From a virus, in IMG/VR virus record IMGVR_UViG_3300020041_000064, positions 1-6,373 of that record: a stretch of 6,373 nt of DNA, one strand, 5' to 3'. Within the stretch, counting starts at the first letter, position 1; each line of letters opens with the position of its first letter. The notes beneath the pieces are model-generated. The model was not told the DNA's origin. It was given only the letters and a program-made list of their open reading frames with translations, and ran no database searches. Below are positions 1-6,373 of this stretch, one piece after another. The position numbers and the translations under genes are program-made.

Positions 1-121
1 ACTATTTTCTCGGATATAATACGCAAGAACCTGTCTCGGCCATAGAGCGCTCCTCCTGGAGAGCCGCTGGACCAGAAGAGCTCTGAGCATCCATCTGTTG
101 AATATGTTCGAATAAATTTAG
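1..121. repeat. Left copy of the exact 121-nt terminal redundancy (circularisation overlap)
   Basis: By eye, 1-121 (actattttctcggatataat...cgaataaatttag) matches 6253-6373 base for base with an offset of 6252. Confidence 0.97.
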
Positions 122-1442
122 AAATTCCGAGGAAAAAGCGGTATAAGCGGGAAAGGCGATGAGAAGCTTCCAAATCAACACCATCGTACAAACGACATTC
201 AGTAAGAATAAGAATATCATCATGCGGTAAATCCGCTTTAGGAGAAAGTATATTTCGTTCATCATTTTCTTTATGATAATTGTCTACATAATTTAAATAA
301 AGCTTACAAAAAGACAAAATGCTCTGTTTGGATGAAGCATTTTCATTAAACGGATCACAAGTTAGATCAGCACATCCGCTACGAATGACTCGTTGGGGCG
401 CCGTGAACGCAGAATGTAATAGTTGATAAACACCCGATGGAAGTTCACGAACAGAGTCTGAAAATCGGGGGAATAATCGAAGGAGATACGGCCAAGTAGG
501 CTTAATTGTACGAAAATATCCATTGCGCTCAACGCGGACTCCATCAAGGCACTTATCGGCAACTTCATCAATTTCGGCAATTCGTACCTTTCGAGGAAAG
601 AGATTTGATTCTGTAAATCCAATGGAATGGAAGGACTTAGGTCGCACCACTTTTGGCATCTGAGTATAAAAGTCGGGTAAAGCGACAAAACTATTAACAT
701 ACGACGCAACATACGGTGCTGCGAATCCTCGCGAGAGTGACGCATCACAACGTCCGTAAGACCAAGCCTTAGATACATTTTCACAAACAGTTTGCGAGAA
801 TCGTTCGGAATCGGAAAACAATAACAAGTGCCAATGCGGGCGGAAACTGGTAGGGCCGTATTCTGATACAGCGTAGTAACGTAATTTTTCATCGGGGTAA
901 TAACTTCTTAAACGTTTTAAAAATAAATCAAGGTCACGATTACAGATATAAGGAATCCTATTAGGAACATCATGCCTAACCTTACCAAGAATATATAAAA
1001 GATCCTTAGATTTCATAGGACAAGAAAACCGAAATTCGGGATCCTTAAAAGTACGCTCAACAGTAGAACTCTTCAACTTGACAGAAGCGGAGCGAGGAAC
1101 GCTACGAAAACCAAACAGATAAGTATTAGGGTCACCAGCATCCAAGTCATCAATAGAGGGAACACAGGGTACATCCGCAATATCATCCGTACATGTTTCA
1201 ATAACGGAAACCTCCAAAGTAGGGAGAAAACAAGGTGCATAAGTAAGAGTAACAAAATATACGTAACGGAATTGGGCAGAATAAGAGGTGAGCAAATTTG
1301 TCTGAATCCCGGAACGACGAAGGATACAAGAAGGACAAGAACCACAAGACACAAGAACAGACTCGTGTGTATACTTGTTAACGACCGTACGAGGATTCTG
1401 ACAACGAGTCACTAACTTATTCTGTAATTCCTTAGTAATCAT
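1..1442 (-). CDS. VP4: Rolling-circle replication initiation protein (VP4/Rep, HUH endonuclease), N-terminal 480 codons; the ORF continues across the circular junction into 6252..5976
   Basis: The ATG at 1442-1440 overlaps the TGA of the upstream peptidase gene (ATGA). Hand translation of this frame is open from 1442 to base 1, and the last residues (..FLRIISEKIV) run into the 100-aa ORF at 5976..6278. The total is 1719 nt, or 572 aa. Motifs seen are a Cys cluster C14 and C33-G-S-C-P-S-C39 (1326-1346), RCR motif 1 YFVTLTY (1239-1259), HUH motif HWHLLLF (816-836) and the double-Tyr motif YVASYVN (693-713). As I recall it, the last resembles the phiX174 gpA active site YVAKYVNK. The ORF is absent from the track because it leaves the window. 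Confidence 0.9.
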   Translation of the reverse strand, partial: MITKELQNKLVTRCQNPRTVVNKYTHESVLVSCGSCPSCILRRSGIQTNLLTSYSAQFRYVYFVTLTYAPCFLPTLEVSVIETCTDDIADVPCVPSIDDLDAGDPNTYLFGFRSVPRSASVKLKSSTVERTFKDPEFRFSCPMKSKDLLYILGKVRHDVPNRIPYICNRDLDLFLKRLRSYYPDEKLRYYAVSEYGPTSFRPHWHLLLFSDSERFSQTVCENVSKAWSYGRCDASLSRGFAAPYVASYVNSFVALPDFYTQMPKVVRPKSFHSIGFTESNLFPRKVRIAEIDEVADKCLDGVRVERNGYFRTIKPTWPYLLRLFPRFSDSVRELPSGVYQLLHSAFTAPQRVIRSGCADLTCDPFNENASSKQSILSFCKLYLNYVDNYHKENDERNILSPKADLPHDDILILTECRLYDGVDLEASHRLSRLYRFFLGISKFIRTYSTDGCSELFWSSGSPGGALYGRDRFLRIISEKI

Positions 1443-1747
1443 TTTCTATCAACAAAATTAAGTTCCATTTGACGGGGGTTACGACCGCGAGCAAAGGAAA
1501 CATGAACAAATGTACGATATTTTATAAGCTGGTCAAATTTAAAGGAAGAACCTTTAATCTTCAAAATGAAGTCATCAACAGTAAAATCGATAGGCTTCAA
1601 ATCAATAGCGTCACCAGTCAAATGCTGAGAGGTTTTGGATCCATTACACGCATTATTCTGTTCTTCAGTACGATAAGCAGAAGTAACAGTGAAATGAATA
1701 TTCCGGCGGAGAAGCCACTCAACAAATTTCATCAATTCTGGATTCAT
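1439..1747 (-). CDS. Zn-dependent cell-wall peptidase, M15 family (Peptidase_M15_3 / D-Ala-D-Ala carboxypeptidase-like fold), 102 aa; putative endolysin
   Basis: The motif TSAYRTEEQN is followed by S40-Q-H42-L-T-G-D-A-I-D49 (1601-1630), which fits the SxHxxGxAxD zinc-binding signature of LAS/M15 peptidases. A distal FVH82VS (His at 1502-1504) could supply the third ligand. T-rich codon position 3 matches the other genes. The ATG lies 3 nt after the upstream stop, and the TGA overlaps the Rep ATG. Confidence 0.85.
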   Translation of the reverse strand: MNPELMKFVEWLLRRNIHFTVTSAYRTEEQNNACNGSKTSQHLTGDAIDLKPIDFTVDDFILKIKGSSFKFDQLIKYRTFVHVSFARGRNPRQMELNFVDRK

Positions 1748-1750
1748 GAC

Positions 1751-1840
1751 TTACGAAAATATTTGAGCAATAGACGTAAGAAGACTGACAGCAGCTGCAA
1801 TAATTGCAGACCAAATCTTAGATTTAGTTTCACTTTTCAT
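1751..1840 (-). CDS. 29-aa single-pass membrane peptide (MKSETKSKIWSAIIAAAVSLLTSIAQIFS); candidate holin-like partner of the peptidase
   Basis: It has an ATG start and a net +2 N-terminus (MKSETKSK), followed by a 20-residue uncharged hydrophobic stretch. About half of its codons end in T, like the confirmed genes. The stop TAA at 1753-1751 lies 3 nt before the peptidase ATG. Its small size keeps confidence moderate. Confidence 0.45.
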   Translation of the reverse strand: MKSETKSKIWSAIIAAAVSLLTSIAQIFS

Positions 1841-2027
1841 CTGGAATTGCTTTAAAGGTTGAACAATGAGAGACAATAAGAACACAATCAGGACGAAGAT
1901 GCGAAGAAACAAATTCGGAAATTTCATCAACGGGAACAAGAATGGTTTCGTTCTGATTGGGACTCGTTTTTGATTGAACGGAGCACAAATAATACTTTTC
2001 CATAAAAATAAAAGTTAAATTAGACAT
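1830..2027 (-). CDS. Hypothetical protein of 65 aa (57 aa if started at ATG 2003; 89 aa with a hydrophobic N-terminus if started at ATG 2099)
   Basis: The frame has a very strong T3 codon signature, e.g. att ctt gtt ccc gtt gat gaa att tcc gaa ttt gtt tct tcg cat ctt cgt cct gat tgt gtt ctt att. Its stop TGA at 1832-1830 overlaps the 29-aa ORF by 11 nt. I recognise no motif in it. Confidence 0.45.
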   Translation of the reverse strand: MSNLTFIFMEKYYLCSVQSKTSPNQNETILVPVDEISEFVSSHLRPDCVLIVSHCSTFKAIPDEK

Positions 2028-2044
2028 TGTTTTTAAAGACAGAA

Positions 2045-2077
2045 CAAAGATAAAAACAAACACTTTAAAAAAACAAA
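2045..2077 (-). promoter_or_regulatory. Candidate Bacteroides-type promoter: TTTG (2077-2074), 21-nt spacer, TATCTTTG (2052-2045)
   Basis: Read on the minus strand it is TTTG-tttttttaaagtgtttgtttt-TATCTTTG. This fits the -33 TTTG / -7 TAnnTTTG consensus described for Bacteroides sigma-A promoters. It sits 17 nt upstream of ATG 2027. The local sequence is AT-rich, so a chance match is possible. Confidence 0.3.
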
Positions 2078-2137
2078 TGTCAACGTAAAATATTAACATT
2101 AATAAACAATGAGCTATATGGGTGACGGGATGGTCTG

Positions 2138-2209
2138 TGAGTTTGCGTATATAAGACAAGGAGAGACTGAAAGCTATAAGGTAAATAGCTTTCCCTTCGG
2201 GCAAACTCA
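2138..2209 (-). other. 72-nt nested stem-loop in the non-coding region
   Basis: The outer stem is a perfect 9 bp, tgagtttgc (2138-2146) with gcaaactca (2201-2209). The middle stem is aagg (2158-2161) with cctt (2194-2197). The apical stem is a perfect 8 bp, gaaagcta (2169-2176) with tagctttc (2186-2193), closing a 9-nt loop taaggtaaa. Confidence 0.6.
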
Positions 2210-2331
2210 TGTAGGCTTCGCCAAATAATATTTAGGGGTATAGCAGCGACGGGGGAGAAGAGCTCTCCGGGAAATTGCTTACGCGTTGCAGACATCAAGC
2301 TTCAAGGAAGGCAGTACTATAGCCTAACGGC

Positions 2332-2363
2332 TCTGATTTCAGTCCTACGTCCCGAAATTCAGA
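2332..2363 (-). other. Stem-loop of 9 bp with one bulge
   Basis: tctgatttc (2332-2340) pairs with gaaattcaga (2354-2363). Position t2358 is bulged, and the loop is 13 nt. Confidence 0.5.
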
Positions 2364-2371
2364 AGGTGTAT

Positions 2372-2390
2372 AACCACGCTGCGCGCGGTT
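2372..2390 (-). other. GC-rich 7-bp stem-loop
   Basis: On the minus strand it reads aaccgcg-cgcag-cgtggtt. The stem is continuous in that sense, using one G-T wobble. On the plus sense the same position is an A-C mismatch. Confidence 0.45.
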
Positions 2391-2404
2391 GCCGGAAGTT
2401 ACTC

Positions 2405-2442
2405 CAAACACAAAAACCCGACACGTATCACTACGGCCGGGT
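2405..2442 (-). terminator. Intrinsic-terminator-like hairpin plus T-tract downstream of VP2
   Basis: The minus strand reads ACCCGGCCGTA-GTGA-TACG(T)GTCGGGT, an 11-bp stem with one bulge and one G-T pair closed by a GNRA-type GTGA loop (2416-2442). TTTTGTGTTTGG follows directly (2415-2404). It lies 88 nt after the VP2 stop codon. Confidence 0.5.
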
Positions 2443-2529
2443 AAATGTAAACAAAAAAATACTAACGATTGAAATTATAATTAGTATTAGAATTACTATT
2501 AATAGAACGAGAAAAAGATTAGAAATGAC

Positions 2530-3597
2530 TCAATGAGGTAAGAAATTACCTATAGTATTACCAATACTAGTTCCATAACCAACCCATTTATCAGCGTCAA
2601 AATATGAATGCTTTTTCTTTTCATTTCTGGAACGATACCATTCTTCAATATTCTTACTGCGAGCATTATCTTGAGGAAGACCCAATCTAAGCTCCTCATT
2701 ATGAAAAGCGGCAGAAGACTGATTAGCCGCAATATTAGCGGCAATCTGAGACTCAGCAATACGAGAGGCAATCCCATTAGAAATAACCTGGCCACGAGCA
2801 CGAGCAGCAGCAAGAGCTTCCTCAGCTAGAGCCTTTTTAGCCTCAGCATAAGAAAGATATCCAGAAGCCATACGTTGATAATAATCCGCAGCCTTAACAT
2901 TCAAATCAAGTTGTTGTTGCTGATCAAGATACTTATTCATAACACCTTTAGCCTCATTATCAAGAAGCATACCAGCATGCTGAGCGCGCATAACAAGACC
3001 AGTCATTGCCATGTTGTCAACTTCCTGCTGTTCCTTAGCATAACCAAGCTGGGCACGTGCTAATCCAGTAGACCGCATATAATCACGAGCTTCATCAGTA
3101 AGTTTTCCCCAATCAACATTGGAAAGGATCTCCATAGCCTTGGCATCAGCAAGCTGTCTGGCTCCTTGCATTTGTGACTTTTCAGACTGCATAAGCTCAT
3201 ATTGAAAAACATTACCAATAGAAGAACCAATGCCGGAATAATCCGCCTGGAAAGGCTGCATGACAGCAGAACCGGCAGAAGAGGCAGCAGCACCAGTACC
3301 GACAGACTGGGCAGAACCAGCAGAACCACCATTCATCATCAGATAAGGATTCAAACCAGCTTCTTCGAGGCGTTGACGTTGCGCGGAGGCAGTATTATAT
3401 GCGTTTTCCTTGTTCCACATATTTTCCTGGAAATCGCGCTGCTGCATTGCCATACGCTCGTTAAACTGATTATTCATCTGATTTATCTTATAATTCATCT
3501 GGTTAGTCTCCCGGACATTTTGTCTGTTCTGCGAATTCTGAATAGCAGAAGAACCAACACCAAGGAGACCACCAGCGATTGAACCAAGAAGACCCAT
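2530..3597 (-). CDS. VP2: DNA pilot / minor capsid protein VP2, 355 aa
   Basis: It has a Gly-rich hydrophobic N-terminus (MGLLGSIAGGLLGVGSS) and a Q/N/M-rich coiled region. The motif QRQRLEEAGLNPYLM is one I recognise as typical of non-phiX microvirus VP2 proteins. An Ala/Gln-rich helical C-terminal half follows. The start ATG shares one base with the upstream stop (TAATG at 3599-3595). Confidence 0.85.
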   Translation of the reverse strand: MGLLGSIAGGLLGVGSSAIQNSQNRQNVRETNQMNYKINQMNNQFNERMAMQQRDFQENMWNKENAYNTASAQRQRLEEAGLNPYLMMNGGSAGSAQSVGTGAAASSAGSAVMQPFQADYSGIGSSIGNVFQYELMQSEKSQMQGARQLADAKAMEILSNVDWGKLTDEARDYMRSTGLARAQLGYAKEQQEVDNMAMTGLVMRAQHAGMLLDNEAKGVMNKYLDQQQQLDLNVKAADYYQRMASGYLSYAEAKKALAEEALAAARARGQVISNGIASRIAESQIAANIAANQSSAAFHNEELRLGLPQDNARSKNIEEWYRSRNEKKKHSYFDADKWVGYGTSIGNTIGNFLPH

Positions 3598-4079
3598 TAT
3601 TCAGAGGAAGCAGCATCAGCGGGAGCAGCAACCGCTTTTTCTGCCTCTTGTTTAGCGTTTTCAGCATCAATCAATTCCTGAGCCTGAACTTCAAGATTTT
3701 GAGCATAAGCCGACAACTCCTTAGACCAAGCAATAATCTCAGAAGGAGCCTGGACATACCGAGAACGAACCGTCGCCAAAAGATCATCATCAGACATTCC
3801 GTCCATAATCTGCTGAATCTGAGAAGCGGGCCGATTGCCTTGGCCAAACTTGGAAGCGACAGAAATACCGGCACGGGAAGCCAAGTCCTTAGAATGAAGA
3901 ATCAGATGGATATCAGAAGTATAACGCACCGGACAAGTCTCTTCATTATCATAAATTTCAACTCGAAGCTGTTCGGTAGAATCAAACTCGGGAGCAACTG
4001 CAAAAACATCCGGAGAAACATCGGGAACAAGTCCGGAACCTGGTTCCAAACTTTTCAGAGAATTAAATTTTCCTATCAT
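3597..4079 (-). CDS. 160-aa acidic protein between VP1 and VP2; putative internal scaffolding protein (VP3-like)
   Basis: It has an ATG start 11 nt after the VP1 stop, a T3 codon signature, an acidic Ala/Glu-rich C-terminus and a size typical of VP3. The function is assigned from position and size only. Confidence 0.65.
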   Translation of the reverse strand: MIGKFNSLKSLEPGSGLVPDVSPDVFAVAPEFDSTEQLRVEIYDNEETCPVRYTSDIHLILHSKDLASRAGISVASKFGQGNRPASQIQQIMDGMSDDDLLATVRSRYVQAPSEIIAWSKELSAYAQNLEVQAQELIDAENAKQEAEKAVAAPADAASSE

Positions 4080-4090
4080 AATTAAAAACT

Positions 4091-5956
4091 TTAGTAAGGT
4101 ACACCATCACGAGACAAATTACGGGCAACATAGCAACCGATATAAGAGTTAACCAACAATTGGTCAGTATCCCAGGTAGAATCAGCGTTCACACCAAAAA
4201 TCGGGTCAAGAACAGAAGGATTGACCTTGAAAAACTTGTAATTCAAACCAACTTTAGTCACCGGATCGGGAGTAGAACCGCCAAAACGGGCCCAGCCAGA
4301 AAGCAAGGAATCAGTTACAGGAGAAACCCAAGATTTTAAAGTAGTAGTAAACGCGCCGTTAATGACATCAAGCTTAGTCTTCCAATTGAAATAACGGGGA
4401 TTATAACCGGCATTAAACAGATTGAAAGCAGTAGCAAGTGAAGAATTAAAAATCTGCGTCATAGGAAGCGTTTCCATGCCAATATTATCAAACTCCGGAA
4501 TCGGGAGAGACTCAGCATCGGTAACAAGCAACTGGCCATCCTGTCCGGTAATGGAATAATCAAGCAAAGGAACGGCATGATAGATACACATAACGACACA
4601 ATGTTCGTCAGTAGTATAAGTGAAAGAACCGTTTCCTGCACCGACACCCTTACCGGCAATAACAGCAGTATCACCTTCAGTAGCAAGGTTATTGTTCACA
4701 ACCTCACTGATATCAAGGTTACGGGAAATACCACCGATATAGGTACACATATTAGAAAGAGCCTGGGGCAGTTTCACGCCAAAGTGCTTGCGAATCTGTT
4801 CACGATAGTCGGAGTCTCCGGACTGACTGATTTCCTTCCAACGCTGAAGGGCTTCGGCCTGGCGAAGAGCAAGAACAGTAAATTGATTCTGCAAACCAGA
4901 AAGGTCAACTTGAAGAGTAGAACCAGAAAGAATAACGTTAGAAGTAGAAGCGTCTTTGGCCGAGAAAGATATCGGGGTAAGAGGAGCATTATAAGAACCC
5001 GCAGTAGCAACCTCAGAAGTAGCATTACCGCTTGAACTCTTTAAAAATACAGAAGGAGAAACAACACCATCAGTATTTAAAAGATTAATTATAGCAACAT
5101 CTCCAAACTGGGAATTCGGAAGAACACCCATCAGCATGTCCTTGTTCCAGTTACAATATTTGAGGTCAAACATTGTGTCAGATTTCCAATAATCAGATTT
5201 ATCGGAAGGAATAGAATCAAAAGGAATGAAATCGGGAGAAATTCCAGAAAAGTAATCAACATTATAAGAAGAAGGATTAGAATTTTCCCATTGAGACCAA
5301 CGGAAGAAATCCTGGTAAATCTTCTGATAAGCAAGAATAGGGAATATATTCACAACGTTATTCTGAGAATACTGTTGAGAAAAACTTGCTGCATCATCAT
5401 TATTCACTAAAGAAGTAGACCACCAACGATTGCCAGAAGTAGGGACAGAAGACACAAAGTTTCCATAACCAAGATAAGACAAAAGTTTAAAAGACAAATC
5501 TCCTCGGAAAAAACCAAACGAATTTTTAAAACCAGAAGAATTTCCGGGATTAGGAGAAGTTCCATTAAGCCGATAAGGGAAATAGAACAAAGAAGACAAA
5601 GGCAAAGAAGGAAGATAAGTACCCAAAGACAAATTCTGTGTCAAAGACAGGGCCTGGATCTGATTAACATCCTGCATTTGAGTCAACACAGAAGGAGCAG
5701 ATTTCCAGAGAAGGCGCAACGGCACAGCATAGAAATCAAAATACTCACGCAACCGGGTATAAGCAGAAGTCTCAACGGGCTGAGTACGAGTAAAATACTC
5801 AACATTGAACTTATACTTATCACCAGGCATAGAAATATCCCAGTAAACAGGAAGAAGCTCACCAACTTTTGCGGTAAACGCATTTTTACGTCCAATATCA
5901 AATCCAGAACGGTGAGGATGATTCTGAAGATTGGACATCCCGGTGTAAGAAGCCAT
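4091..5956 (-). CDS. VP1: Major capsid protein VP1 (F-like jelly-roll capsid protein), 621 aa
   Basis: This is the largest ORF. Its N-terminus HPHRSGFDIGRKNAFTAKVGELLPVYWDISMPGDKY..YTRLREYFDFYAVPLRLLW matches the conserved start of Microviridae VP1 as I recall it, with AFTAKVGELLP resembling Alpavirinae. It has a very strong T3 codon bias and ends in TAA at 4093-4091. Confidence 0.93.
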   Translation of the reverse strand: MASYTGMSNLQNHPHRSGFDIGRKNAFTAKVGELLPVYWDISMPGDKYKFNVEYFTRTQPVETSAYTRLREYFDFYAVPLRLLWKSAPSVLTQMQDVNQIQALSLTQNLSLGTYLPSLPLSSLFYFPYRLNGTSPNPGNSSGFKNSFGFFRGDLSFKLLSYLGYGNFVSSVPTSGNRWWSTSLVNNDDAASFSQQYSQNNVVNIFPILAYQKIYQDFFRWSQWENSNPSSYNVDYFSGISPDFIPFDSIPSDKSDYWKSDTMFDLKYCNWNKDMLMGVLPNSQFGDVAIINLLNTDGVVSPSVFLKSSSGNATSEVATAGSYNAPLTPISFSAKDASTSNVILSGSTLQVDLSGLQNQFTVLALRQAEALQRWKEISQSGDSDYREQIRKHFGVKLPQALSNMCTYIGGISRNLDISEVVNNNLATEGDTAVIAGKGVGAGNGSFTYTTDEHCVVMCIYHAVPLLDYSITGQDGQLLVTDAESLPIPEFDNIGMETLPMTQIFNSSLATAFNLFNAGYNPRYFNWKTKLDVINGAFTTTLKSWVSPVTDSLLSGWARFGGSTPDPVTKVGLNYKFFKVNPSVLDPIFGVNADSTWDTDQLLVNSYIGCYVARNLSRDGVPY

Positions 5957-5975
5957 AAAAAAAAATAATTAAAGA

Positions 5976-6373
5976 TTAAACAATACCAGGCTCATTCTGA
6001 TAAGAAAAAATACCAGACAAATCATTAAACCTCTTATGTTTGACCTTATCTCGACATTTCATCAATGCCGCAGCGGCCAAGCGACGAACAAGAGGTAGTT
6101 TATGGTAAGGTTCTTCCTTATTCTCGGGAAGCCTGTTATAACGGAAAGAATAATTACGAATCTCAAAGTCAACCAAATCCTTGTCATCAGAAACTTCCAG
6201 GGTCTGATAAAAATCGACAAGACGATTGTAATCGTAACGACTCCAAAAATTGACTATTTTCTCGGATATAATACGCAAGAACCTGTCTCGGCCATAGAGC
6301 GCTCCTCCTGGAGAGCCGCTGGACCAGAAGAGCTCTGAGCATCCATCTGTTGAATATGTTCGAATAAATTTAG
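5976..6373 (-). CDS. VP4: Rep (VP4) C-terminal part; 6253-6373 duplicates 1-121, and the unique continuation is 6252..5976 with stop TAA at 5978-5976
   Basis: It is in the same frame as 1..1442 (6252 is divisible by 3) and is open from the window edge to 5976. The track reports it as a 100-aa ORF starting at an internal TTG (6278), which is Leu473 of Rep. Confidence 0.88.
   Translation of the reverse strand, partial: KFIRTYSTDGCSELFWSSGSPGGALYGRDRFLRIISEKIVNFWSRYDYNRLVDFYQTLEVSDDKDLVDFEIRNYSFRYNRLPENKEEPYHKLPLVRRLAAAALMKCRDKVKHKRFNDLSGIFSYQNEPGIV
6253..6373. repeat. Right copy of the exact 121-nt terminal redundancy
   Basis: This is the same string as 1-121. It lies inside the Rep coding frame, so it is an artefact of linearising a circle and not a biological repeat. 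Confidence 0.97.

Follow-up and report, generated by a model that had tools for sequence, protein, structure and literature searches.

A trimmed M15A peptidase gene and an adjoining conserved membrane-peptide gene, a possible lysis module of an alpavirus-like microvirus

We analysed a stretch of viral DNA of 6,373 nucleotides (nt), positions 1 to 6,373 of IMG/VR record IMGVR_UViG_3300020041_000064, hereafter called the window. Its minus strand carries a gene for a small protein with the zinc signature of M15 cell-wall peptidases, and directly upstream of this gene lies a 29-codon open reading frame (ORF) for a putative single-pass membrane peptide. An earlier reading of the letters alone, hereafter the sequence-only reading, had proposed that the peptidase may lyse the host enzymatically rather than in the manner of phiX174 E, and that it would need a membrane partner. 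We find that the 29-codon ORF is under protein-level selection and linked to the peptidase gene. This conserved, unannotated gene is the useful new lead of the analysis.

The peptidase gene and its active site

The peptidase gene occupies exactly positions 1439-1747 of the minus strand and encodes 102 amino acids (aa) from an ATG start. Its length is fixed, because an in-frame stop sits two codons 5′ of the ATG. Residues 40-49 read SQHLTGDAID (S40-x-H42-x-x-G45-x-A47-x-D49), and residues 80-84 read FVHVS. Translation thus shows the coordinates and residue numbers given in the sequence-only reading (H42, D49, H82, and S84) to be correct. Its assignment of the protein to the M15 zinc peptidases is borne out by the motif, by the distal histidine H82, by Pfam PF08291 Peptidase_M15_3 (44.6 bits, where the gathering cut-off is 23.2; E=1.7e-11), and by PHROG 894 'endolysin' (E=1e-18). 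A hidden Markov model search for M15 families and an alignment of the metal ligands had been proposed as checks. The search returned this above-threshold hit, and in the alignment H42, D49, and H82 match H77, D84, and H119 of the peptidase M15A of Burkholderia phage ST79, which are the ligands according to its authors (PMC5025407); neither outcome refutes the assignment.

H42 and D49 also align with the His and Asp of the T5 endolysin motif SKHITGDAID. In a single-sequence search against solved structures, the T5 endolysin was the only match and a weak one (E=0.14), and a profile search ranked 1LBU first (E=1.4e-12). Sonic hedgehog is aligned by the family profile over its SLH..AVD and HIH segments, which hold the zinc ligands of hedgehog N-domains. 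F80-V-H82 of the window peptidase thereby falls opposite HIH, and in the pairwise alignment opposite W117-x-H119 of ST79. The AlphaFold2 model of the peptidase has a mean predicted local distance difference test score (pLDDT) of 94.9 and a predicted TM-score (pTM) of 0.86. The best solved Foldseek match of this model is again 1lbu, a Streptomyces zinc DD-peptidase (E=7.7e-4, probability 1.0), followed by LysB4, Ply500, LdcB, VanY, and hedgehog N-domains. Among the predicted viral structures of BFVD, the best matches are M15A peptidases of microviruses and tailed phages, with a TM-score of up to 0.90.

A metagenome protein collection holds 1836 homologues of the peptidase. The 119 closest are nearly all 102 aa long and come mostly from contigs of ~6.2 kb, and H42, D49, H82, and S84 are invariant among them. 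For the distant family, columns were read from one representative per 50%-identity cluster (116-132 representatives, alignments A1 and A2). N31, S40, H42, D49, Q73, and H82 are invariant across these representatives (H82 is invariant in alignment A1 and present in 128 of 132 representatives), and S23, R26, G36, G45, A47, D72, I75, and R92 are conserved in at least 90%. R26 precedes H42 by 16 residues. In LysPM1, an endolysin of the Proteus phage Homer, R47 precedes H63 by the same distance, and LysPM1 R47 is the counterpart of the carboxylate-binding R138 of 1LBU (PMC13461873). When single peptidase queries were used to scan for related loci, two of the three gave mainly tailed-phage contigs.

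The Pfam match covers profile positions 42-108 of 108, compared with positions 2-107 for the ST79 endolysin, which implies that ~30-40 N-terminal residues of the usual domain are missing. Consistent with this, the usual relatives have 130-150 aa, ~31-40 N-terminal residues of the ST79, KS9, and Bacteroides phage enzymes, with the 'F-T-x-x-E-L ... N-x-P' segment, are absent, and the window peptidase begins at the helix preceding the 'T-S-x-x-R' strand. The N-terminus contains no signal-peptide-like segment, and residues 3-14 form a helix of the predicted fold. These features support the earlier statement that the protein has neither a signal peptide nor a wall-binding domain. Judged by sequence and predicted fold, the gene is a genuine, N-terminally trimmed member of the M15A / Peptidase_M15_3 family (LAS-type, Hedgehog/DD-peptidase fold), and its product almost certainly folds as an M15A-type domain whose zinc site is intact.

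The sequence-only reading had implied that an M15 peptidase in a microvirus is largely new. Such peptidases have been in print since 2012. The abstract of Roux et al. 2012 already gives M15_3 peptidases of human-gut Alpavirinae and Gokushovirinae as a result. These authors reported 11 such genes in human-associated members of the two groups, made a case for their horizontal acquisition, and proposed that they encode endolysins; 5 of the 11 genes adjoin an 'unknown' ORF (PMC3394797). Kirchberger et al. 2022 count peptidases among the lysis-associated accessory genes that recur in microviruses (PMC9239249), and Occultatumvirinae isolates also carry an M15 peptidase (PMC11499846). The orthologues in Dulem viruses 257 and 236 and bajarodmic viruses 1134 and 410 are already annotated 'peptidase'. 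The window peptidase is therefore an ordinary further member of a kind known since 2012, and taken alone it adds nothing to that proposal.

The sequence-only reading had also cautioned that Ser84, two residues after the distal His, stands where many family members have an acidic residue, so that activity should not be assumed. An acidic residue does occur there: it is D106 in LysPM1, where it is proposed for proton transfer (PMC13461873), and the peptidase of Peromfec virus RodF8_10 reads HVD. Within the window peptidase's own subfamily, in contrast, Ser (104 of 132 representatives) or Gly (21 of 132) is normal. Bacteroides phage endolysins read W-V-H-V-S, and the active ST79 peptidase M15A reads W-V-H-I-G. 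Since H-x-S/G is the subfamily norm and the active ST79 enzyme has Gly, we rejected Ser84 as a sign of inactivation.

As read from the aligned representatives, the M15A subfamily comprises two perfectly covarying active-site types. The first has Glu five residues before the distal His together with Trp two before it (56/56), and the second has Tyr five before together with Phe (50/68) or His (12/68) two before. We know of no earlier description of this split between Glu...Trp-x-His and Tyr...(Phe or His)-x-His, which bears on the identity of the catalytic base. The window peptidase belongs to the Tyr/Phe type (Y77...F80-x-H82), with S84. Other residues thus fill the base positions of characterised relatives. 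F80 stands in place of the general base of 1LBU, H195, which lies two residues before the distal His (PMC13461873); Y77 replaces the Glu of the Glu/Trp type, including ST79; and S84 replaces the Asp proposed for LysPM1. The only other nearly invariant acid is D72 (116 of 132 representatives; at least 90% in alignment A1), which lies in an invariant 'D-Q' motif and is the obvious candidate for a general base.

One reading of these replacements is that the peptidase is a catalytically dead remnant, which has kept the fold, and maybe peptidoglycan or metal binding, and has lost hydrolysis through truncation (~40 profile positions are missing) and the missing base. We regard this as very improbable. 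Over 100 close and over 100 distant homologues show little or no variation at the metal ligands and at ten other positions, full-length proteins also commonly combine the Tyr/Phe type with Ser, and a 6-kb genome is unlikely to retain a useless gene in hundreds of lineages. In addition, LysPM1, which has only 116 aa and is likewise of the Tyr/Phe type, is active (PMC13461873). We estimate that the window peptidase is probably active on peptidoglycan.

A conserved membrane-peptide gene beside the peptidase gene

The 29-codon ORF MKSETKSKIWSAIIAAAVSLLTSIAQIFS starts with a basic N-terminus, MKSETKSK, followed by a 20-residue hydrophobic stretch IWSAIIAAAVSLLTSIAQIF. The peptide ends one residue past the hydrophobic segment, so that its charged part is N-terminal. 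The ORF sits 3 nt upstream of the peptidase gene (TAA GTC ATG), in the same frame in the window. In the related genomes PQ007409.1 and PP511526.1, it falls in the 82 nt, left without annotation, that separate a conserved 57-aa ORF from the peptidase gene.

The ORF is intact in 40 of 41 related genomes. Variable sites in the clade of the window are distributed over the codon positions as 8/3/21, and the ratio of synonymous to non-synonymous variant codons is 28:14 in this frame, compared with 7:35 and 3:39 in the other two frames. The mean amino-acid identity is 95% for the peptide and 78% for the peptidase of the same genomes. A DNA pattern derived from the peptide core was found in 52 IMG/VR contigs, and the peptidase gene lies directly downstream in 52/52.

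A second clade, whose peptidases are ~55% identical to that of the window, has a divergent counterpart of 26-29 aa, such as the 27-aa peptide MKSNNIWKIVIGAVSAALGYILNAIGL. Its stop codon overlaps the peptidase ATG, in another frame, in 11/11 IMG/VR loci and in the GenBank genomes examined. The same pattern of constraint is seen in this clade (sites 8/2/22; codons 27:15, compared with 7:39 and 3:43 in the other frames; identity 89% for the peptide and 78% for the peptidase). The peptide of Microvirus mar62 is intermediate in sequence between the two clades. In bajarodmic virus 633 and Peromfec virus RodF8_10, the peptidase gene is placed after the gene for the replication initiator (Rep), and an annotated 29-aa single-pass ORF (MNKPIVKKILEIIIAVATAFLGCLGASSI and MKSKFISVLLKTVSYFLTALAGAFSTTLI, respectively) lies directly 3′ of it. 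Both the peptidase and the peptide are absent from relatives whose capsid identity is 43-53%. The pair thus behaves as one module.

These observations establish selection at the protein level and linkage for the 29-codon ORF, and we consider it very likely that the peptide is translated and functional. With regard to the membrane partner that the sequence-only reading had called for, a candidate is thus present directly upstream (1751-1840), and it may fill this role, which we propose. That the peptide acts in the same lysis pathway as the peptidase seems to us somewhat the better supposition. In the literature that we searched, with most subscription journals outside it, we found no mention of a membrane protein that partners a microvirus peptidase.

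We considered two other ways in which the peptide could be connected to lysis. A signal-anchor-release type or read-through fusion of peptide and peptidase was rejected, as the spacer between them is 3, 9, 13, 16, or 21 nt among relatives and often contains several stops. With spacer length and frame varying in this way, and with the out-of-frame ATGA of the second clade, no single read-through or frameshift works across the genomes. An embedded lysis gene of the phiX174 E type, which works without a wall-degrading enzyme, does not fit either: a wall-peptidase homologue is present and the peptide ORF is free-standing except for an 11-nt overlap.

A further possibility is that the peptide itself is the main lysis effector, acting by collapse of the membrane potential or by a block of wall synthesis, and that the peptidase is an accessory which speeds wall breakdown. 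Small pore-forming toxins collapse the membrane potential, and phiX174 E and the small RNA-phage lysis proteins block a membrane step of wall synthesis. The peptide resembles such single-gene lysis proteins in size and in its single membrane segment. It is also the best conserved protein of the region in both clades, which would be expected if it were fitted to a conserved host target, and the peptidase-less relatives have another small membrane protein at the equivalent place, so that such a protein may suffice. However, the peptide was always found with the peptidase in the genomes examined, the two are absent together in more distant relatives, and the peptidase is under purifying selection with invariant metal ligands. 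We therefore consider an effector peptide with an accessory peptidase rather unlikely, and we return below to the model in which the two proteins act together.

Several irregularities were noted at related loci. In L009 (~3237-3325), the peptide ORF contains a premature stop together with a short duplication, which reflects either a defective genome or an assembly error. In L014, L016, L017, L019, and L030, the spacer from the peptide stop to the start of the peptidase gene contains one to three extra 'TCGTAA'-like units. In Dulem viruses 238, 243, and 226 (PP511323.1, PP511322.1, and PP511396.1; loci L056, L057, and L059, 838-1212), the annotated peptidase coding sequence starts 21 codons before the conserved MN..LM start and overlaps, in another frame, a membrane-peptide ORF of 27-28 aa; the GenBank start is probably too early in these three genomes.

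The peptidase-less relatives L200 and L202-L209 (IMG/VR contigs, ~50% capsid identity, also without the peptide) have a conserved 65-69-aa ORF, MKVTPQQWIEIVKLISTFIVGVITTLFVQSCTVS..., ~160-420 nt upstream of Rep. Its product has an N-terminal membrane segment, a lipobox-like '..QSC', and a tail rich in Ser, Thr, and Asn, and it may be an alternative lysis protein.

Genome layout and probable host

Positions 1-121 of the window are identical (100%) to its last 121 nt, and the two copies lie 6252 nt apart. This repeat is the overlap left by assembly of a circle, and the window is thus a complete circular genome of 6252 nt. It belongs to an alpavirus-like microvirus, and all genes that we judge to be real are read on the minus strand (Table 1).

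Table 1 Features of the window (all coordinates are positions of the window)
Feature	Position	Strand	Basis
Terminal repeat	6253-6373	.	identical to 1-121
Major capsid protein, 621 aa	4091-5956	-	PHROG 514, E=2.9e-63
160-aa ORF at the position of the internal scaffolding protein	3597-4079	-	position
Pilot protein	2530-3597	-	
57-aa ORF, MEKYYLCSVQSK...PDEK	1830-2003	-	translation; orthologues in relatives
29-codon ORF, putative membrane peptide, MKSETKSKIWSAIIAAAVSLLTSIAQIFS	1751-1840	-	conservation, codon pattern, linkage
Peptidase, 102 aa	1439-1747	-	Pfam, PHROG, conserved columns, AlphaFold2, Foldseek
Rep (replication initiator, 572 aa), first 1442 nt	1-1442	-	frame translation; REP_ORF2-G2P (Pfam) on orthologue
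Rep, C-terminal end, across the circle junction	5976-6252	-	1442 + 277 nt = 573 codons

Rep is missing from the program-made list of ORFs because its gene spans the circle junction. Its ATG (1442-1440) overlaps the peptidase stop (1441-1439) as ATGA, and the same 4-nt overlap is annotated in relatives. On the other side, the final 11 nt of the 57-aa ORF overlap the start of the 29-codon ORF. The 57-aa product is not hydrophobic and matched no PHROG and no other family. Its gene is kept in all relatives, including the divergent clades, and the orthologues in PQ007409.1, PP511526.1, and the prophage described below are each a "hypothetical protein". From the 57-aa ORF through the peptide ORF and the peptidase gene to Rep, each stop overlaps the next start or nearly touches it, and this tight packing suggests joint expression. 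A further ORF of 60 aa (MKRLTPDTRC...) lies upstream of the 57-aa ORF in PQ007409.1, PP511526.1, and the prophage, and is absent from the window (~2016-2050).

Four GenBank genomes are nearest to the window, with ~83% DNA identity and the same gene order: Dulem viruses 257 and 236 come from the faeces of lemurs, and bajarodmic viruses 1134 and 410 from those of rodents. Between the pilot gene and the 57-aa ORF lies a non-coding region of 526 nt (2004-2529, minus strand) with GC-rich segments, which is ~84% conserved with positions 15458-15858 of the prophage contig and presumably holds the replication origin, the attachment site, and promoters. The window has no match in Rfam. Near the genes, sites that resemble sigma-70 promoters or terminators are no commoner than in shuffled sequence, in a model that does not cover Bacteroides promoters.

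A peptidase 85% identical to that of the window is encoded by a microvirus integrated in an 89-kb contig (L003; ENA ZHON19-1 scaffold_132). This prophage lies between a TPR gene and a Usp gene and is flanked by 23-nt direct repeats, ATATTAAACATAATGCTGATATT and ATATTAAACATTCTGCTGATATT, which are 6387 nt apart (L003 9468-9490 and 15855-15877) and which we take to resemble a dif-like site. The GyrA and the Clp ATPase encoded beside the prophage are identical to proteins of Bacteroides uniformis, which points to a Gram-negative Bacteroides species as the likely host of the window virus as well. The host is therefore probably a Bacteroides species, and this fits the Bacteroides and Escherichia coli sacculi that the sequence-only reading had suggested as substrates. 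The 23-nt attachment repeat is absent from the window within 3 mismatches, and no close prophage turned up among genomes scanned at one per species.

A proposed lysis pathway and its comparison with known systems

Lysis is the likely role of the peptidase, and the idea of enzymatic lysis in the sequence-only reading remains the most plausible one. Homologues of the same subfamily lie in the holin-endolysin-spanin cassettes of Burkholderia and Bacteroides tailed phages. The gene of the ST79 peptidase M15A sits before LysB/LysC, gp23 of the Burkholderia phage KS9 lies between the holin gp22 and Rz/Rz1, and gp15 of the Bacteroides phage BS-TP3 adjoins a holin gene. Two members have been reported to be lytic. 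The ST79 enzyme degrades E. coli peptidoglycan in zymograms and turbidity assays and lyses permeabilised cells (PMC5025407). LysPM1, a single-domain M15A endolysin, is lytic, and its activity is abolished by EDTA and partly restored by Zn2+ (PMC13461873).

We lean towards a combined model, in which the membrane peptide would give a cytoplasmic endolysin access to the wall. The peptidase would be the endolysin of the phage; it belongs to the subfamily with the motifs F-D-Q-L-I and H-x-S/G, whose members serve Burkholderia and Bacteroides tailed phages as endolysins. Late in infection, the 29-residue single-pass peptide would damage or permeabilise the inner membrane, a holin-like role for a protein of no known holin family, and the peptidase, having no export signal, would reach the wall by this route. 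Zinc held by H42, D49, and H82 would then support hydrolysis of a peptide bond in the peptidoglycan stem or cross-link. The catalytic activity and the bond cut, the lysis function, and the access through the peptide are what we infer rather than demonstrate here. Extended to the group, the model would be that Bacteroides alpavirus-like microviruses lyse by a two-gene module, a single-pass peptide of 26-29 residues and a trimmed M15A endolysin gained or lost as a unit, and that peptidase-less relatives use another small membrane or lipoprotein-like protein. We put forward this extension tentatively, as one possibility that falls short of being probable.

The lack of an export signal would also suit a peptidase that works in the cytoplasm. 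Such an enzyme, a DD-carboxypeptidase or dipeptidase, would trim D-Ala-D-Ala from wall precursors, and failed cross-linking would then lead to lysis on growth, as an enzymatic counterpart of phiX174 E. VanX and the Streptomyces enzyme, which acts on muramoyl-pentapeptide, have activities of this kind. By profile and by fold, the nearest solved structure to the window peptidase is this muramoyl-pentapeptide DD-carboxypeptidase, 1LBU, and the arginine with which 1LBU holds the substrate's terminal carboxylate has a conserved counterpart in R26. On the other hand, the tailed-phage proteins of the same subfamily sit in holin-endolysin-spanin cassettes, and the tightly linked membrane peptide would be left without a role. 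The purified ST79 enzyme, moreover, degrades mature peptidoglycan and lyses permeabilised cells (PMC5025407). A cytoplasmic carboxypeptidase is thus improbable.

We consider it a little more improbable still that the peptidase serves a purpose other than lysis, such as local opening of the wall by a virion-borne enzyme at DNA entry, or some other function in the prophage. In tailed phages, fusions of M15A domains to large virion proteins (gp5-like and other long structural proteins) are frequent, and a few homologues carry the annotation of plate protein. In the window, however, the neighbours of the gene are those for the membrane peptide and Rep rather than those for capsid, scaffold, and pilot proteins. 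Microviruses deliver their DNA via the pilot protein, and we know of no wall hydrolase in microvirus virions; both points count against a role in entry.

Several points also weigh against the combined model of peptide and endolysin. On the side of the peptide, small hydrophobic ORFs are frequent, at 1.8 per kb of coding strand in these AT-rich genomes (a chance of ~9% for any 52-nt segment), and the counts of intact ORFs (40 of 41) and of linkage (52 of 52) come largely from kindred genomes and so are not independent. The peptide is a small single-span protein encoded beside a putative endolysin gene, as expected of a holin. It had no significant match to holin families, the sole match being PHROG 443 (holin) at E=0.13, and it has no hydrophilic, charged C-terminal tail of the kind typical of holins. 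We know of no holin as small as 29 residues, and it is questionable whether such a peptide could pass a 12-kDa protein across the membrane. No spanin, the outer-membrane component, is evident in the genome. On the side of the enzyme, the missing N-terminal part and the three replaced base positions described above belong here, and the combination of Tyr/Phe with Ser has no representative among the experimentally characterised enzymes compared. Our literature search found no experimental characterisation of any microvirus copy.

Microviruses are among the most abundant phages of the mammalian gut, and lysis by those outside the phiX174 group is still experimentally undefined. A candidate partner gene, a likely host in B. 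uniformis, and a related prophage, which is a possible template for resurrecting a related phage, make the endolysin proposal of 2012 directly testable. If the model holds, no lysis system would have been defined earlier than this two-gene module for a microvirus that is not of the phiX174 group, and a peptide of 26-29 residues would be able to open the wall to a 12-kDa enzyme or itself act as a 'protein antibiotic'. The peptidase is also among the smallest natural M15A domains, and its Tyr/Phe/Ser type would inform the mechanism of the family, including the catalytic base.

The closest known counterparts are the microvirus peptidases themselves. Those of Dulem viruses 257 and 236 and bajarodmic viruses 1134 and 410 are 70-82% identical to the window peptidase, belong to the same Pfam family, and are encoded at the same place directly before Rep, with the 4-nt overlap. 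Neither they nor the peptidases of Roux et al. differ from it in substance; the 29-codon ORF is not described there.

Among the tailed-phage enzymes, ST79 peptidase M15A, KS9 gp23, BS-TP3 gp15, and UZM3_14 share SxHxxGxAxD, F-D-Q-L-I, and (W/F)-x-H-x-(S/G) with the window peptidase. In a pairwise alignment, ST79 has 32 residues identical to it, and both lack an acid two residues after the distal His. ST79 and its relatives differ in having 131-149 aa, the whole Pfam domain, and the Glu/Trp type, and in lying beside holins of ordinary size and spanins. LysPM1, compared by its published residues, is like the window peptidase in being very small and single-domain, in its Tyr/Phe type (Y98, F102, and H104, corresponding to Y77, F80, and H82), and in having an Arg 16 residues before the first His; it differs in having Asp (D106) instead of Ser two residues after the distal His. 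1LBU shares the zinc motif and the conserved Arg, whereas it has 213 aa, an extra N-terminal domain, and His195 where the window peptidase has Phe, and it is 19% identical over 85 aligned columns.

At the level of gene organisation, the holin-endolysin cassettes of tailed phages have the same layout, with a gene for a small membrane protein beside that for a wall hydrolase without a signal. They differ from the window in that its peptide has 26-29 aa in both clades, no charged C-terminal tail, and no significant holin-family match, and in that a spanin is missing. The peptide is also similar in size to phiX174 E and the RNA-phage lysis proteins and, like them, has a single membrane segment. 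Unlike the gene for E, however, its ORF is not embedded in another gene and overlaps its upstream neighbour by only 11 nt.

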